DNA of 64,000 bases. Origin: an uncultured Methanosarcinales archaeon. GTDB taxonomy: Archaea; Nanobdellota; Nanobdellia; Woesearchaeales; GW2011-AR9. The notes under the pieces were generated by a model, which was not told the DNA's origin, did not search any database, and was given only the letters and a program-made list of their open reading frames with translations. The position numbers and the translations under genes were made by a program. The stretch is from assembly GCA_964527395.1 (NCBI GenBank), contig CAZGQD010000001.1:3000-66999 (forward strand). Reading direction: 5' to 3'. Positions 796 to 36,271 of the stretch are shown here, piece by piece (position 1 is the first letter of the stretch; each line of letters opens with the position of its first letter).

Positions 796-2103
796 ATGGT
801 AAGTGGAAAATATATTACAATCAAAGAAGCAATGGACAAAGGTTCAGGAGATGTAGCTGTTAGAGGATGGGTACATAGAGAACGTGGATCTTCCAAAATG
901 AAGTTCGTAGTACTTAGAGATACATCAGAAATAATTCAATGTATCTTTAAGAGAGACAGTTTTGATGATAGGTGGGATGCTATAGATAAACTTCAAGTAG
1001 AAGCAAGTATGACAATTGTGGGAGTGATCAAAAAGGATGAAAGAGCACCTAGTGGGTATGAAATTGAAGTAGTTGATTTTGAACTTGTGGGAGAGAGTAA
1101 TGAATTTCCAATCAATAAGGATGCAAGTAAAGAACATTTGGCAAACTTTCGTCATTTGCATTTACGTTCAAGAAAGATGGTTGCAATGCTGAAAATTCGT
1201 TCAACTGTATTTGGAGCTATTGATTCGTATTTCAAAGGTGCTGGGTTTTATGAATATCATTCACCAATATTTCAAGCAGTACAATGTGAAGGTGGATCTG
1301 ATTTATTTCATGTAGATTATTTTGGGAAGAAGGATGAAGTGTTTTTAGGACAGACATGGCAATTATATGCAGAACCAGCAATCTTTGCACTAGAAAAATT
1401 GTATACCATATCTCCTTCATTTAGAGCTGAGAAAAGTAAGACTAGTAGACATCTAACAGAATATTGGCATGCTGAAATGGAAATGGCATGGGCAGATTTT
1501 GATGATATTATTAGTCATGGAGAAGCTTTATTGAAATTTATTTTTAAGACTGTGCTTGAGAAACATGAAGAGGATCTTAAGATCTTGGGTCGTGACATTA
1601 GTAAGTTGAAGCCTATTGTAGAAAAGCCGTTTATTCGAATGACTTATACTGAGGCACTTAAGATTTTGAAAGAGAAGTGTGGAATGGATATTGAATGGGG
1701 TAAAGATTTACGAACAATTGAAGAAGAGAAATTGTCTGAACTTTATGATGTTCCAATTATTTGTACACATTATCCTAAAGCTGTTAAGGCTTTTTATATG
1801 ACTGTTGATAAGGAAGATCCTAGAACTGTACTTGGCTGTGACTTTTTAGCACCAGAAGGGTATGGAGAAATCATTGGAGGGTCACAGCGTGAAGCAGATA
1901 TTGAATCTGTGAAGCAGCGACTTGTTGAGGATGGAGAAGATCCTAGCGAATATGAGTTTTATTTAGATACCCGTAGATATGGTTCAGTTCCACATGGTGG
2001 ATTTGGACTAGGAGTTGAGCGAGTGATTCGATGGGTATGTGGACTTGAGACTATCAAAGATGCAATTCCATTTCCACGAACAATGGAGAGGTATAAGCCT
2101 TAA
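796..2103 (+). CDS. asnS: Asparaginyl-tRNA synthetase (archaeal type)
   Basis: Class IIb motifs PSFRAEKSKTSRHLTEYWH, KAFYM, LAPEGYGEIIGGSQRE and YLDTRRYGSVPHGGFGLGVERV. TATA-like ttttataata lies about 25 nt upstream. Confidence 0.93.
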   Translation: MVSGKYITIKEAMDKGSGDVAVRGWVHRERGSSKMKFVVLRDTSEIIQCIFKRDSFDDRWDAIDKLQVEASMTIVGVIKKDERAPSGYEIEVVDFELVGESNEFPINKDASKEHLANFRHLHLRSRKMVAMLKIRSTVFGAIDSYFKGAGFYEYHSPIFQAVQCEGGSDLFHVDYFGKKDEVFLGQTWQLYAEPAIFALEKLYTISPSFRAEKSKTSRHLTEYWHAEMEMAWADFDDIISHGEALLKFIFKTVLEKHEEDLKILGRDISKLKPIVEKPFIRMTYTEALKILKEKCGMDIEWGKDLRTIEEEKLSELYDVPIICTHYPKAVKAFYMTVDKEDPRTVLGCDFLAPEGYGEIIGGSQREADIESVKQRLVEDGEDPSEYEFYLDTRRYGSVPHGGFGLGVERVIRWVCGLETIKDAIPFPRTMERYKP

Positions 2104-2185
2104 GTGAGGGTTTTAGAATCTTTTTTTCTTCGTTTTTTGGCTTTGTTTTTTAGGTATTTTGGTTTCTAGAAGCGTGGTTTTTATG

Positions 2186-3025
2186 TTACTTAGCTGCTTG
2201 TGCTTCTTGTTGTATTTTTTCAATTGCTTCTTTGAGTGGTGTTATTGGAACACCTTGCCAGTTGTCTGGTCCGTTGTATCTAGCATGTTCTTCTGCTTCA
2301 GGACTGTAGAAAATTAAATCTTCTAGAAGAGTAATATCTCTTGTGTGTAAGTCTAGTTCAGAAACAGTTTGGTATAGACACTTATTAATGAATCCTCCTC
2401 CAATTAGTAGCTGTCTATTGGCAAAGGCAAAAGCTTCATTAGGAAATTGAAGATCTCCTTTATCTGCTTTAGTAACTATAACTCTATCAACTAAACCTTG
2501 TTCGACTAAGTGTGCTGTCCCAAAAGGATAATGATCTGCTGTTTCAAATACTACTCTTGATAATCCTAAGGTTTTTGCTTGTTTTAGAGTTTCAATACTT
2601 TTTTTGCCAATATCTCTAACTTCTTCCCTATATCTTCCTGAACCAGTTCTGTAGTGACATATTTGTGCATAAAATGGATGAACAAAAGCTAAAACTTGAT
2701 TTTTGAGAGGAGTTTGGATACAGTTATTGTTGTATGCGTGAGCAAGAGTTAGGTTTAAAGTACTTGTTCCAGATTCGCTATTATAGTTTGATCTACTTGT
2801 TTTTCTGTTTTTTGCTCTAGCTTCAAGCAAATCTCTGAATGGTTTGAAAAAAGGTGGAATTGATAATCTTGGTGAAAGTGGGAGACCTAAAGTTTCGTGG
2901 AGTTCAGGATCATAAGTAGTTATCCGCGAGCAAGCTCTTGGAAATCCTTGATTTCCAGATGCATAATGCTGAGCATTCTGCACTCTTGGGACTTGCTTTG
3001 TATACTCATCAAGTATTTGAGACAT
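2186..3025 (-). CDS. Hypothetical protein (start moved to internal ATG; carries a hairpin repeat element in frame)
   Basis: Long ORF. ATG at 3025 sits about 28 nt downstream of a minus-strand TATA (cttttataaaaaaa, 3047-3059). No family recognised. Confidence 0.5.
   Translation of the reverse strand: MSQILDEYTKQVPRVQNAQHYASGNQGFPRACSRITTYDPELHETLGLPLSPRLSIPPFFKPFRDLLEARAKNRKTSRSNYNSESGTSTLNLTLAHAYNNNCIQTPLKNQVLAFVHPFYAQICHYRTGSGRYREEVRDIGKKSIETLKQAKTLGLSRVVFETADHYPFGTAHLVEQGLVDRVIVTKADKGDLQFPNEAFAFANRQLLIGGGFINKCLYQTVSELDLHTRDITLLEDLIFYSPEAEEHARYNGPDNWQGVPITPLKEAIEKIQQEAQAAK
2923..2996 (+). repeat. Family B hairpin element, triple-hairpin variant, inside the minus-strand ORF 2186..3025
   Basis: tccgcgagcaagctcttggaaatccttgatttccagatgcataatgctgagcattctgcactcttgggacttgc aligns with 8606-8682. 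Read through as ..HYASGNQGFPRACSRI... Confidence 0.7.
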
Positions 3026-3046
3026 AATTTTTGTTTTATTTTGAAG

Positions 3047-3059
3047 TTTTTTTATAAAA
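3047..3059 (-). promoter_or_regulatory. TATA box for 2186..3025
   Basis: Minus strand reads cttttataaaaaaa, about 28 nt upstream of ATG 3025. Confidence 0.5.
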
Positions 3060-3132
3060 GTGAGTAGGATTTTGTGGATTTTGCTAATTTGTTTGAGAAA
3101 TATTAAAAAATAAGATTTCTTGTAGAACTGCA

Positions 3133-3654
3133 ATGGTACTTGATTTTGAATGTTTGTTGTCAGATTCACTAGATTCTATTGGGTTCTCTGGTGAGAAACA
3201 TGAGTTTTTGGTACATGATGGGTCTGTTCATGAAATAAATCCGCAGTGTTCTATGATGCTTGATAGATATTCTACTGCCCTTCATGGAGTTGTAGATCAT
3301 GTGAATGGTCGTTATTCTGCTGTTTTTGGTGAAGGGAAGGGTTTTGATCTCTTGAATTGGGTTAGGCACAATAATTATGACGAATTGGCCTATTTTTTGT
3401 CAGAAACAGGTAATAATTGTCTTAATCATAGTCAGAATCTGGCTCCACATAAGATTTTTTTGTATCTGGGATCTAAGGGGTTTGTAGTGGCGGTGGAGCA
3501 TGAAGGGGAGGGTTTTGATGCAAAAAAAGTGGATTTTAAGGGAATTTATCAGAATGAAGGGGCGGCTTTTGACTTTTATAGAGGTTGTGGGTCAAAAGTG
3601 TTTTTTGATGATAAAAATGAAGCTAAAGTGGTATTTATGGAGTTTTTGCTTTAA
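3133..3654 (+). CDS. Hypothetical protein (weak GHKL/HATPase-like HEGEGFD motif)
   Basis: ORF with a TATA-like aaatattaaaaaataa about 25 nt upstream. The motif resemblance alone is weak. Confidence 0.4.
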   Translation: MVLDFECLLSDSLDSIGFSGEKHEFLVHDGSVHEINPQCSMMLDRYSTALHGVVDHVNGRYSAVFGEGKGFDLLNWVRHNNYDELAYFLSETGNNCLNHSQNLAPHKIFLYLGSKGFVVAVEHEGEGFDAKKVDFKGIYQNEGAAFDFYRGCGSKVFFDDKNEAKVVFMEFLL

Positions 3655-7150: not shown

Positions 7151-7414
7151 TAGAAATCCTCAAACGGGGCGAGGCCAATGTCGAGCAAAGCTCTCCTAGC
7201 TTATTTATCCTCAAAGATTTTTCGGGACTTGACTATTCGCCAAGTTTCCAAGGAAAAATAAATGAAGAGGCTCTTCTCCGCGTTCATGGAAACCAAGGCT
7301 TTCCAGACGCATAATCAAAGATTTTGCATTCGTTCGTACCTCACTCAGGTCGAATGATCAAGCTCTATTGAAGAAGGTCTCTTTTTTGCGTAGGCGCCCC
7401 CGAGAGGATTTCTA
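7151..7414 (+). repeat. Long composite hairpin element (family L, full-length copy), closed by an 11-bp outer helix and a GGGGCG/CGCCCC inner helix
   Basis: tagaaatcctc (7151-7161) pairs perfectly with gaggatttcta (7404-7414), and ggggcg (7165-7170) pairs with cgcccc. The interior holds module 7171-7216 (also in the radB 5' region) and a family B double hairpin at 7283-7332. Confidence 0.7.
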
Positions 7415-25317: not shown

Positions 25318-25635
25318 TTAATATTTCCATTTACTGTGGCCGAAGGCTATGAATAAATCGAAACCTTTGACGTTTGGAGTGTCACAAGCACCATAACAGT
25401 CTCCTGCCCAGAATGTGATGTTTAAAGTAGGGATTGCTTTTAGAAGTTCTTCTTGGATTTTGTTTGCTTTTGGTTTTAAGCCGTCTGGAAGTTGAATTAG
25501 AACTGTTTTAGGATTCTTGGAAACAGAGTTTCCAGACGCAAAATTAGAAGATTTTGCATTTTCTTCTTTGATTTTTTCTATAGCTTTGTCTAGCTCTAGG
25601 TTCAATTCTAAGTGAGTTTTGATTGCTTCTGACAT
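25318..25635 (-). pseudogene. dph2: Diphthamide synthase Dph2, N-terminal ~100 aa only (truncated or split), with a 14-aa repeat-element insertion
   Basis: AK..KTVLIQLPDGLKPKANKIQEELL...GDCYGACDTP...FDLFIAFGHS matches domain 1 of archaeal Dph2 (AKRVLIQSPEGL...YGACD...LIHLGHS). The ORF stops right after GHS, whereas Dph2 is normally ~330 aa. Confidence 0.6.
25514..25560 (+). repeat. Family B double-hairpin element inside the Dph2 fragment (in frame)
   Basis: ttcttggaaacagagtttccagacgcaaaattagaagattttgca has hairpin 1 ggaaac/gtttcc and hairpin 2 gcaaaat/attttgc. It corresponds to the extra SSNFASGNSVSKNP. Confidence 0.75.
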
Positions 25636-33754: not shown

Positions 33755-33844
33755 GTGGTAAGTTACGTTAAAATTTGTGGTATTGATCATTTAGAAGATG
33801 CTCTTACTGCAATTCATTATGGAGCAGATGCATTAGGTTCATGA
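33755..33844 (+). pseudogene. 5' fragment (29 codons) of the TrpF-like gene, cut off by stop codons supplied by a hairpin element
   Basis: GTG about 25 nt downstream of tttataaa (33724-33733). (M)VSYVKICGIDHLEDALTAIHYGADALGS* is the canonical PRAI N-terminus (VKICGI..ED...A...GADA.G). Confidence 0.7.
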
Positions 33845-33889
33845 AAATTATAAATTTTCAGACGCAGAATTAAAAAAATTCTGCATTTT
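33839..33889 (+). repeat. Family B double-hairpin element interrupting the TrpF-like gene
   Basis: Hairpin 1 is gaaaat-tataa-attttc (33843-33859) and hairpin 2 is gcagaat-taaaaaa-attctgc (33864-33884). In-frame TGA at 33842 and TAA at 33851. The downstream ORF resumes in the same frame at GTG 33890. Confidence 0.8.
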
Positions 33890-35833
33890 GTGATAACAGA
33901 ATCTAGAGATAATCCAATTAGAAGGGAAAAATATCAAAAAATAGTAACACAAACTCCTTCTCATATAGATACTTATTTGGTTACTACATTTACTGATTAT
34001 GGTACATTGTCTAGTTTGATTAGTGAAATTGGTTTTAGTGCAGTTCAATTGAATGTTGATGCTAGAAAAGGTTCTGGACAAATAGAAGATATTTCAATTG
34101 AAGATATTCAAAAATTGAGAGAAAATTTTCCTGATTTGAAAATAGTTAAGGGAATTGTAATAAATTATGAGGTTGAAAAAGGAGTTAGTCCAATTGAGTA
34201 TGGCGAGAGATTTCTACCTTATGTGGATAATGTTCTTTTAGATGCAGTATCTGTTGATGATAGTGGAAGATTACTTTTCATGGAAACTGAGGGTTTCCAG
34301 ACGCTGCTCTCAGCAGCACATGGAGGAACAGGGATTACATTAGATTGGGATGATTGTAGAAGATTTGTTGATCAATATGGTTTTGATGCTAATAATTCCA
34401 GACAAGTAATCTTAGCAGGGGGTCTAAATAGGCATAATGTTCAAGAAGCAGCAGCAAAAACAGGAGTTATGGGAGTTGATGTACAATCAGGAGTTGGAAA
34501 GTGGAGAAAGGATTATTTGTTACTTGAAGATTTTCTAAAAAATGCTAAGAGTAGGGAAGCTCAGAGAAGAGTAACAACTGGAATGACATTTAAGGATTTA
34601 GCTGAAAATTTGCCGGTTTTACCTAGACAACACCTATTTAGAGAAAGAGAAGAGTACTTAAGTTCAATTTCTGATTTAGAAACATTCAGAAGAGCTCTTT
34701 ATTTTTCACAAAGAACTGATGCTGTTGGAAGACCAAGAATTAATGAGGAAGAATGGGGAAGAGTAGCTTCTAAGTTAGGAGATTTGGCTGATATTGTTGA
34801 AAGAAATACAGCAAGACATGCAGGAGATGTAGTATTCAGGTCGAATAATTATTTCTTAGGACATACACTATTTGGAATATTTGGAGAAGAAGCAAAAAAA
34901 GAAGGAGAAAAAGTTGCAAGCGAAATTGATTTAAGATTTAAAGAAAATGAGGGTTTGATAGCTAAATTAGCTTCAAAAGGAGAAATTTCTAGGGATATTA
35001 ACTTACAAATACCTATATTTAGTGTTTTAGATCATCAAAAGCAGTACGCATTACTTTTAATGAAGAATGTATATACTGCAATGAGAAAGGCTGATAAAGC
35101 TGGAAAAAGACCTGATGAGGTAATAAGTAGAGAAGATTTTGATACTTTATTTCAATTATGTCAAGATACAGTTTCAGTTGCATATAGGTTTATTCTTACT
35201 GGAGAGGTTATTCCAATTGATTATAAAAGTGATTTTGTTGAAAAACTCACAAACAAGTTAGAATTTAGTGATTGGAAAGATTCTTGGAGAGAAATGGATG
35301 ACCCTGCTAAAATTCTTTTATATACTATAAATGCTATGCAAAATCTTGAAAGAGAAGTAGATTTGATAGTAAATCCTTTCTCAGGAGGGATGGAGTTAGG
35401 GTATGCTTTTAGAGGAATTACTGCAGCTTTAGGAAAGGATGTTGTTAGAGATGTTTTGCTGCTGAAGTTTTCAATGCATGGTGATGGAGATGACTTAGTT
35501 GATTATCCAAAAGAGCAATGGTTTGAAAAACTTGTAAGTGGAGGGATTCCAAGATTAATAAGAGATGAGGCAAGAGGAAAATTATTGGTTAATCATGGAT
35601 TAATAATTGATGATAATACTACTTCTAAAAGTACACTAGCACAAATTAGAGAAGCTGTTACTAGTAAGGGAATTAATCAAGGAAGATATGGGATATGTGC
35701 TATTGAAATAGGAAGGTTAGATAAAGTGAATTTTGATGAAACAATTCTTACTGATTTAGAATTTGAAGCGATAGGTGATAGGATGAGTGAAAAGCATAAA
35801 ACTGGATTAGTAGCAGAATCTCTTAAAATATGA
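33890..35833 (+). CDS. Fusion protein: PRAI (TrpF)-like TIM barrel, central helical region, C-terminal type I phosphoribosyltransferase domain
   Basis: GGTGITLDWDD...VILAGGLNRHNVQEAA...GVDVQSGVG are TrpF C-terminal motifs, and GLIIDDNTTSKSTLAQI is the type I PRT PRPP-binding loop. Same frame as the 33755 fragment. Confidence 0.7.
   Translation: MITESRDNPIRREKYQKIVTQTPSHIDTYLVTTFTDYGTLSSLISEIGFSAVQLNVDARKGSGQIEDISIEDIQKLRENFPDLKIVKGIVINYEVEKGVSPIEYGERFLPYVDNVLLDAVSVDDSGRLLFMETEGFQTLLSAAHGGTGITLDWDDCRRFVDQYGFDANNSRQVILAGGLNRHNVQEAAAKTGVMGVDVQSGVGKWRKDYLLLEDFLKNAKSREAQRRVTTGMTFKDLAENLPVLPRQHLFREREEYLSSISDLETFRRALYFSQRTDAVGRPRINEEEWGRVASKLGDLADIVERNTARHAGDVVFRSNNYFLGHTLFGIFGEEAKKEGEKVASEIDLRFKENEGLIAKLASKGEISRDINLQIPIFSVLDHQKQYALLLMKNVYTAMRKADKAGKRPDEVISREDFDTLFQLCQDTVSVAYRFILTGEVIPIDYKSDFVEKLTNKLEFSDWKDSWREMDDPAKILLYTINAMQNLEREVDLIVNPFSGGMELGYAFRGITAALGKDVVRDVLLLKFSMHGDGDDLVDYPKEQWFEKLVSGGIPRLIRDEARGKLLVNHGLIIDDNTTSKSTLAQIREAVTSKGINQGRYGICAIEIGRLDKVNFDETILTDLEFEAIGDRMSEKHKTGLVAESLKI
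34277..34323 (+). repeat. Family B double-hairpin element, second copy inside the TrpF-like gene (open, in frame)
   Basis: ttcatggaaactgagggtttccagacgctgctctcagcagcacatgg has hairpins ggaaac/gtttcc and gctgc/gcagc. It lengthens the segment between LLD and GGTG relative to typical TrpF. Confidence 0.7.
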
Positions 35834-35878
35834 CGAAAGTTTAAAATATCTGAGGCTCTTTTAAGAATTAGATTAAAA

Positions 35879-36271
35879 ATGGAATTAGCAATAGATCAAC
35901 AAAAAAAAGTTCAAACACTACTGGTTGAGTTAGTTGGTGGAACAGATGTTGATTGGCCAAAAGACGATTATCGTGCAGCTAGAAGAGTTGTTAATCAAAG
36001 AATAAATGATTATATTGTTGATTTTTATGAAAAAACTAAAGATTTGCCTTTTCAGGATTTCCATGAATTTGCAGAAAGAGCTGGATTTGTCTGGGAGAAA
36101 TTAAGATTAGGGTTAAGAGAAGAAGTTTCAAGAGTTTATGCAGATCAAGAACAAATCAAGAATAGATTGCTTAGTTATATCGGTTCTGAAGAACATGGAA
36201 GGATTGCACATCTAGAAGTAGATTATATGATGACTCGAAGACCTTCTTGGATTGATGAGTATAGAACTTAG
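35879..36271 (+). CDS. Hypothetical protein (130 aa)
   Basis: ORF 45 nt after the fusion gene. Its 5' region is partly duplicated at 36306-36370. Confidence 0.5.
   Translation: MELAIDQQKKVQTLLVELVGGTDVDWPKDDYRAARRVVNQRINDYIVDFYEKTKDLPFQDFHEFAERAGFVWEKLRLGLREEVSRVYADQEQIKNRLLSYIGSEEHGRIAHLEVDYMMTRRPSWIDEYRT

Follow-up and report, generated by a model that had tools for sequence, protein, structure and literature searches.

In a 64,000-nucleotide stretch of an archaeal genome (positions 3,000 to 66,999 of contig CAZGQD010000001.1 in assembly GCA_964527395.1), a TrpF-like gene carries a 42-nucleotide repeat at positions 34277-34318, which folds into two consecutive hairpins and lies open in the reading frame of the gene. 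This repeat is one copy of a lineage-specific, non-autonomous mobile element, and the copy is presumably translated as 14 extra residues. It is likely that the repeat is a translated selfish insert similar to the Rickettsia palindromic elements (RPEs), which are hairpin repeats read in frame within unrelated genes (PMC10969869). It probably moves in single-stranded form, much like IS200/IS605 or REP elements. Unless a contig is named, coordinates refer to the whole 64,000-nucleotide stretch, hereafter called the window, which corresponds to C1:3000-66999 of a 1.585-Mb genome in 63 contigs. The element consists of the following parts:

34277-34318, + strand: inserted element unit, 42 nucleotides or 14 codons (FMETEGFQTLLSAA) in the frame of the gene; it matches the family model R1, is missing from the paralog on C11 (L001) and is present in the ortholog L004
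34281-34299, + strand: hairpin 1, with the stem TGGAAAC/GTTTCCA (34281-87/34293-99) and a 5-nucleotide loop, from DNA folding and family covariation
34300-34302, + strand: conserved single-stranded linker GAC between the two hairpins
34303-34317, + strand: hairpin 2, with the stem GCTGCT/AGCAGC (34303-08/34312-17) and a 3-nucleotide loop, from DNA folding
34319-34321, + strand: CAT codon (His), which matches CAA (Gln) of the element-free copy; atypical 3′ junction

The sequence quoted in a preliminary description of this DNA was located at 34277-34323 of the plus strand, within the open reading frame (ORF) 33890-35833 and in the same frame. For the family search, a covariance model (R1) was built on an alignment (A1) of 25 other genomic copies, from which the 34277 copy was excluded. 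Nevertheless, 34277-34319 matched R1 with 42.1 bits (E=3e-8 in the window search and 8e-7 in the whole-genome search), confirming the preliminary claim that the gene harbours two members of one element family, this being the second. Its proposed kinship with copies at 7283, 25514 and 33839 was also borne out, since all of them are R1 matches, though the third one starts at 33838, not 33839; these three outscore the 34277 copy with R1, and two additional copies were found at 2935 and 8619. Folded as DNA, either strand of the 34277 copy forms the two hairpins (−11.9 kcal/mol, z=−4.4), and none of 200 shuffled sequences folded as well. The second hairpin, said in the preliminary description to keep the structure with a different sequence (gctgc/gcagc), indeed folds, and it is not a one-off: the same GCTGCT/AGCAGC subvariant recurs in the copies at C11:11241, C2:34760, C44:437 and C6:36254.

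The recipient of the element is a fusion gene, in which the insert is framed by two conserved motifs:

33755-35833, + strand: TrpF-like fusion gene, copy B, with an N-terminal TrpF barrel (Pfam PRAI; Foldseek 1NSJ/1LBM) and ~400 further residues that match no profile
34241-34243, + strand: Asp codon of the LLD motif, aligned with Asp126 of T. maritima TrpF; the recipient loop begins directly after it
34322-34333, + strand: GGTG motif, which closes the enlarged loop; G174, G175 and G177 are nearly invariant in 139 sequences

Over its full length, the N-terminal domain without the element can be aligned with T. maritima TrpF (1LBM/1NSJ, E=4e-14), with KICG on Cys7 in strand 1 and LLD on Asp126 in strand 6, two residues which we take to be catalytic in the T. 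maritima enzyme. An AlphaFold2 model made for the N-terminal domain of the L004 protein contains a confident barrel (pLDDT 89.2, pTM 0.88), and a Foldseek search with this model returned TrpF structures first (1NSJ/1LBM, TM 0.88-0.90). By alignment and model, the host domain is a TrpF-type (beta/alpha)8 barrel, whose phosphoribosylanthranilate isomerase activity is only predicted. The insert (residues 159-172) is placed between strand E143-147, which bears the catalytic Asp, and helix H182-192 in the model, with low confidence throughout and values below 50 at 166-171, and the 14 extra residues are probably disordered. The alignment with T. maritima TrpF proposed in the preliminary description puts the insert after the equivalent of Asp126.

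The length of this loop, counted in a 139-sequence alignment as the residues that separate the LLD Asp from GG(T/L)G, is most often 7 (95 sequences) and at most 15 in 137 TrpF homologs, while it is 12 in the element-free paralog and 26 in the element-bearing gene. An equally long loop in element-free TrpF-like proteins had been named beforehand as the observation that would make the resemblance coincidental, and none was found among the 137 homologs. The insert is open, in frame and flanked by the LLD strand and GG(T/L)G, as the preliminary description had it; however, the number of added residues, given there as 15-17, has to be corrected to 14. The CAT that follows replaces CAA. Likewise, its statement that LLD and GGTG lie a few residues apart in canonical TrpF is right for the usual spacing of 7, but the spacing is already 12 in the element-free paralog. 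As for the remainder of the fusion protein, its C-terminal 255 residues gave no Pfam match at E<=1 and no PADLOC match, and assignment of a C-terminal phosphoribosyltransferase ("PRTase") domain was rejected on these grounds. In a library of 1.84 billion representatives, clustering at 50% identity groups the fusion into just one cluster.

A protein search returned only three relatives of the entire gene, P0004, P0002 and P0003. P0004 (74% amino acid identity) is without both elements and reads ...VSSGEGQELL/QGGLGVTLDW across the site marked by the slash. Its gene is intact and belongs to this very genome (C11:17679-19643, on the scaffold of 40,973 bp that underlies L001), and the homology between C11 and C1 is confined to a two-gene cassette made of the fusion gene and a gene for 121/130 amino acids. 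Because of the same-genome location and the confined homology, P0004 is regarded as a paralog, and its treatment as an ortholog was rejected. The paralogous cassettes cover C11:17343-19643 and 33755-36271 of the window. Relative to this element-free copy, the net gain is 42 nucleotides (34277-34318), and since the paralog lacks exactly these 14 residues and no homolog has a loop longer than 15, the 34277 unit can be called an insertion. P0002 (locus L004, 87% amino acid identity) is an intact gene of 676 amino acids, which has an uninterrupted N-terminus (GADALG/FVITESRD) and carries the 34277 element. L004 has the downstream gene of the window, too, and is the true strain ortholog; it provides the exact empty site for the sibling element at 33838. 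The third relative, P0003 (L005, ENA scaffold_22441, 1239-3296), carries both elements. It is 100% identical to the window copy over the first ~1260 nucleotides of the gene, both elements included, and then follows the C11 paralog, so that its 5′ part is copy B and its 3′ part copy A. Such a hybrid is either a true recombinant of the two paralogs or a chimera of the assembly, and L005 was not counted as independent evidence.

Because L004 possesses the 34277 element but not the 33838 sibling, and its gene is intact, the 34277 copy is older and tolerated. The order of events indicated by the sequence comparisons is that the paralogs diverged, the 34277 element was inserted, the strains split (dS about 0.3-0.4), and the 33838 element was then inserted in this strain only. 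This 33838 element is a younger insertion with two stop codons that breaks the gene in this strain. The ratio of nonsynonymous to synonymous substitution rates (dN/dS) between the window copy and L004, both of which bear the element, amounts to 0.185 overall, with 0.167 for the TrpF domain; it is 0.20-0.30 against the paralog, and 0.42-0.45 for the small neighbouring gene. The low value between two element-bearing copies shows that purifying selection continued with the insert in place. Relaxed selection on this gene, as proposed in the preliminary description, is supported only in part: the intact element-free C11 paralog could make the copy dispensable and may buffer the loss of the broken copy B, but relaxed selection accords poorly with dN/dS of 0.17-0.27 and with an L004 gene that is intact with the element. 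Furthermore, the element is identical between the window and L004 at 45 of 45 nucleotides, while the flanks within 300 nucleotides differ by 9.8% (P about 0.009). This perfect identity is suggestive of a constraint at the nucleotide level but is not decisive.

The family to which the insert belongs has a unit of 42-50 nucleotides composed of two consecutive hairpins with a conserved unpaired motif before each, TTCA-hairpin1-(A)GAC-hairpin2-(A)T, and its consensus is TTCATG-GAAAC-loop-GTTTCC-AGAC-GCAGAAT-loop-ATTCTGC-AT. In the family alignment, 97% of stem cells are paired and compensatory double changes occur at 10 of 16 pairs, values matched by none of 500 shuffles. There are no terminal inverted repeats; the two hairpins are separate and stand in direct order. 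An R1 search of the genome (E<1e-5) gave 58 matches, that is, 49 free copies and nine passengers of a miniature inverted-repeat transposable element (MITE), the latter being left out of the counts and used as an internal control. The same model found 0, 0, 0 and 1 matches in four congeners and 0-1 in each of 36 others, and this near-absence from 40 relatives indicates a recent, lineage-specific burst. Mobility is evidenced by several pairs of filled and empty sites within the genome. Copies are also clustered, with six adjacent pairs less than 500 bp apart against 0.73 expected, and the pair in the TrpF-like gene (439 bp apart) is one of these; the hotspot suspected in the preliminary description is therefore supported as a genome-wide clustering. 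Some copies are even arranged head to tail in tandem, joined as GCA/TTCATG.

About 40% of the copies are located in ORFs. Those within long ORFs (~20) occur in several frames and may run with or against the gene. In ORFs of at least 200 codons, 14 of 15 copies have a length divisible by three (42, 45 or 48), compared with 10 of 29 elsewhere (Fisher p=2.7e-4), a test with some circularity, as an ORF would not survive a frameshifting copy. Surviving genic copies are thus the frame-keeping ones. Such a frame filter is expected under translation and needless under splicing, so the genic copies appear to be translated, not spliced. The 34277 copy itself has a length that is a multiple of three and no stop codon in the frame of the gene, which argues for its translation; the peptide segment FMETEGFQTLLSAAH would mark the insert-containing protein. 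Hosts of in-frame copies include family-B DNA polymerase, the PolD large subunit, CDC48, an RPA-like protein (two copies), an M3 peptidase and a RibL-type FAD synthetase. In the case of the RibL protein, the 16 residues from the element correspond to a clean gap in seven orthologs. A stop-poor design was considered as the reason why genic copies are open, and copy-by-frame combinations are indeed open more often than in shuffles (51% vs 31%), but this effect is modest and insufficient alone. The core replication and proteostasis genes with copies are found at C22:4127-9508, C24:13679-16402, C6:36214-38604 and C44:227-1231, and the PolD large subunit gene that has a copy also holds an intein.

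The family shows a strong strand polarity. GC skew in this genome is contig-wide and extreme, about 0.3-0.4 in either direction, in the window and in all large contigs. Among the free copies at places where the absolute skew is at least 0.1, the TTCATG strand is on the G-rich strand in 39 and on the C-rich strand in three (p=5.6e-9), and the 34277 copy follows the family rule: it is on the plus strand with a local skew of +0.21, so that its top strand is the G-rich one. Long ORFs are distributed 399:346 between the strands, indicating that the skew is not caused by gene orientation; gene orientation was also rejected as the cause of the polarity, on the basis of the same ratio and of genic copies being both sense and antisense. 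In the control, the MITE-borne passengers, orientation is split 4:3. The junctions were examined by joining the flanks of each copy and searching for them in the genome, which yielded paralogous empty sites. All nine resolvable sites, including the exact L004 site for the 33838 element, read N/TT(Y) when empty and N[TTCATG...GCA]TT(Y) when filled, and no duplication longer than TT(Y) was seen at these nine sites. Given a TT frequency of 0.134, TT at nine of nine junctions has P about 1e-8. The pattern is compatible with insertion 3′ of TT by an element that ends in TT, or with a duplication of 2-3 nucleotides. One gene for a Y1 transposase (IS200/IS605-type, PF01797) is present in the genome, at C2:54381-54724 on the minus strand, and none in the other four genomes of the genus. 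It retains the HUH motif and the C-terminal Tyr, and a long perfect hairpin lies upstream of it.

The 39:3 polarity together with the TT adjacency suggests movement as single-stranded DNA, and polarity, TT junction and the conserved unpaired motif at the hairpin foot, as in REPs, favour a single-strand mobilisation of the HUH type in trans. In this scenario the family would move strand-specifically as single-stranded DNA, most likely at the replication fork; the element would land next to a TT dinucleotide, with a target duplication never exceeding 2-3 nucleotides; an HUH/Y1 transposase would act in trans, in the style of IS200/IS605 ends or REP elements; and within genes selection would retain only frame-preserving copies. 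A more specific version, in which the double hairpins are cargo-less minimal IS200/IS605-like units, with a left-end and a right-end hairpin, copied as single strands by an HUH/Y1 enzyme at the archaeal fork next to TT, is conceivable but should be taken as tentative.

Several observations weigh against the overall reading or blur it. The 3′ junction of the 34277 copy is GCA/CA, without the usual TT that is there in 35 of 49 copies, and its empty-site comparator is a 74%-identical paralog, not an ortholog, so that the exact junction is blurred. The insert position is beside the predicted active site. The sole Y1 gene is split by a frameshift, its flanks are unlike the element, for which reason the tnpA ends were rejected as its source, and a search of the genome for a TnpB gene found none. 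The G-rich strand is assumed to be the lagging-strand template by analogy with bacteria and a few archaea, in a fragmented assembly with no mapped origin. Finally, a TT duplication of 2 nucleotides made by another enzyme is possible.

The last point leads to the rival of a classical cut-and-paste MITE, moved as double-stranded DNA by a DDE transposase with a 2-3-bp TT(Y) target duplication. TT(Y) flanks filled sites on both sides and is present once in empty sites, which can be read as such a duplication, and the genome does contain an active-looking classical MITE. That genuine MITE of 277 bp, however, has duplications of 8-9 bp and a 4:3 orientation, whereas the element has two hairpins in direct order in place of terminal inverted repeats, the orientation of TT relative to it is constant, and a double-stranded mechanism does not predict a 39:3 strand polarity; we consider this rival unlikely. 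Strong polarity along with strand asymmetry would also be shown by a host-selected signal, for instance a Chi- or KOPS-like site for replication, segregation, repair or a DNA- or RNA-binding protein, in which case the TrpF copy would be retained for its function. Conserved unpaired motifs and the 45 of 45 nucleotides kept between strains against 9.8% flank divergence fit this idea. Such a signal is nevertheless improbable, since the 1.6 Mb hold just ~50 copies, which are clustered, next to none are found in the 40 relatives, the four congeners included, copies break a gene (33838) or occupy essential proteins, and presence or absence differs between strains and paralogs.

Another class of explanation concerns the product and not the movement of the element. 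If the RNA lost it as an archaeal bulge-helix-bulge intron, or if ribosomes bypassed it during translation, the protein would be without the insert; the strong structure of the elements and the 33838 sibling, which is exactly 48 nucleotides long and keeps the frame despite two stop codons, could be taken in this sense. But the RNA fold of 34247-34351 consists only of the two internal hairpins with unpaired flanks and no bulge-helix-bulge (context z=−0.7), genic copies stand in both orientations relative to the gene and are almost all open with a length divisible by three (14/15 vs 10/29 elsewhere), and there is no Rfam match, so that removal is very improbable. In particular, two 3-nucleotide bulges across a 4-bp helix, by which archaeal introns of this type are distinguished, are not formed with the flanks in the RNA fold. 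The possibility that the resemblance is a coincidence and the long loop is native to the TrpF-like protein is negligible and can be regarded as refuted: the loop is already 12 against the usual 7 in the element-free paralog, but the match at E=3e-8 was obtained with a model that excludes the copy, the paralog is without exactly these 14 residues, and no homolog loop exceeds 15.

Among known systems, the archaeal family is like RPEs (Ogata et al. 2000 and 2002, summarised in PMC10969869) in being dispersed hairpin repeats that lie in frame in unrelated genes, housekeeping genes included, and are read as an extra peptide with the ORF kept open, and in being inserted at a fold-compatible position, here a low-confidence loop on the confident TrpF barrel of the AlphaFold2 model. 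It differs from them in its size of ~45 nucleotides against about 100-150 bp and in its two tandem hairpins against one long palindrome. It differs further in its archaeal host and in copies that vary in reading orientation and frame and share no single conserved peptide. To our knowledge, strand polarity and a TT junction have not been described for RPEs. The element does not belong to RPE-1 to RPE-10, having a unit of 42-50 nucleotides, an archaeal host and no Rfam match, and it is RPE-like in behaviour only. It may be seen as an archaeal, two-hairpin, ~3 times shorter counterpart of the in-frame palindromic elements already known from Rickettsia, and no published archaeal counterpart was found in the literature searched.

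In terms of mechanism, IS200/IS605 ends, REPs and REPINs appear to be the closest, though attempts to assign the family to any of them failed. Like the ends of IS200/IS605 elements such as IS608 and ISDra2, it has hairpins with conserved unpaired nucleotides at the foot (PMC5027513, PMC3333891), no terminal inverted repeats and hairpins at both ends; insertion beside a short fixed sequence with no real target duplication may be a further parallel, if the TT junction is read in that way. The documented orientation bias of IS200/IS605 toward the lagging-strand template (PMC5027513) would be shared, if the G-rich strand is that template, and a Y1 transposase gene occurs in this genome alone within the genus. 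Unlike IS200/IS605, the archaeal family is without cargo, ~45 nucleotides in total, and has just TT as a target instead of a tetra- or pentanucleotide; the resident tnpA is frameshifted with flanks unrelated to the element, and no TnpB gene was found in the genome. REPs have a well-established conserved unpaired tetranucleotide at the hairpin foot (PMC3333891). The systems of REP/BIME and REPIN with RAYT (TnpA-REP) are similar in their 30-40-nucleotide hairpins with a conserved 5′ tetranucleotide (PMC3333891, PMC3116915, PMC6006769), in tens to hundreds of copies that are often clustered or in tandem, and in a spread thought to depend on a trans-acting HUH enzyme. REPs are extragenic and usually paired in inverted order, however, whereas the archaeal hairpins stand in direct order and about 40% of the copies are in ORFs, and no REPtron, that is, no repeats flanking the Y1 gene, is present. 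From classical MITEs the element is distinguished by the lack of terminal inverted repeats and of a fixed-length target-site duplication. A resemblance to the small dispersed repeats of cyanobacteria may be added; these were reportedly described by Elhai and colleagues in 2008 as very small hairpin-forming units that look mobile, are nested or in tandem and can sit in genes. They are said to be ~21-27 nucleotides long, with other sequences and in other hosts.

The TrpF-like gene represents a dated natural series, from a paralog without the insert through an ortholog with a tolerated in-frame insert to this strain, which adds a gene-breaking second one, and it offers a direct view of selfish hairpin DNA being incorporated into a protein beside an active site. 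Polarity and TT junction turn the label "RPE-like" into a testable single-strand, fork-coupled mechanism, and the polarity of the element could mark the direction of replication in fragmented archaeal genomes. Such inserts, the one at 33838 among them, lead gene callers to split or truncate genes, so that recognition of the family improves annotation of small archaeal genomes. If the tentative version with minimal IS200/IS605-like units were true, few known transposable units would be smaller, and a DPANN-type archaeon would provide the first example there of mobile elements that are strand-polar and coupled to the fork. Under the same condition, essential replication genes (PolB, PolD, RPA-like, CDC48) would be colonised as translated loops, and the identity of the TrpF copy between strains would point to the hairpin, not the peptide, as the constrained feature.

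Besides the 34277 copy, the window contains five members of the family:

33838-33885, + strand: sibling element of 48 nucleotides with in-frame TGA and TAA, between GG and TTTT; R1 67.5 bits
2935-2983, + strand: family copy, antisense within ORF 2186-3169; R1 match
7283-7329, + strand: family copy, intergenic, within a composite repeat; R1 match, with empty paralogous sites at C3 and C39
8619-8665, + strand: diverged family copy; R1 match, 32 bits
25514-25559, + strand: family copy, antisense and in frame in a Dph2-like ORF; R1 match

An Rfam search of the window gave no match. An alternative genetic code was tried and rejected, because table 25 (TGA=Gly) gives no better gene structure and table 11 fits. 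The Dph2-like ORF (25318-25635, minus strand) encodes 105 amino acids and covers only the first 56 of 302 Pfam model positions, and the remainder of the gene is not downstream; this ORF may be a remnant or a split gene.

There are also cases in which the element is combined with other repeats. The 277-bp classical MITE has nine near-identical copies (C3:88708-88984 and eight other places, none in the window) with terminal inverted repeats GATGCTGGGT...ACCCAGCATC and 8-9-bp target-site duplications, and it carries a degenerate double-hairpin copy as a passenger. These nine identical copies were considered as an IS end and rejected, being passengers of a MITE with such repeats and duplications. 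On contig C42, six element copies are found within 8 kb, adjoining an intein-bearing MCM gene. The 7283 copy is part of a larger repeated module (7151-7414 of the window, with the flanks ...aggctcttctccgcg / tcgttcgtacctcac...), which occurs also at C3:68518, C39:9624-9828, C2:79300, C4:37100 and C6:9494. Since other copies of this module are without the hairpin element, the element has apparently invaded another repeat family.

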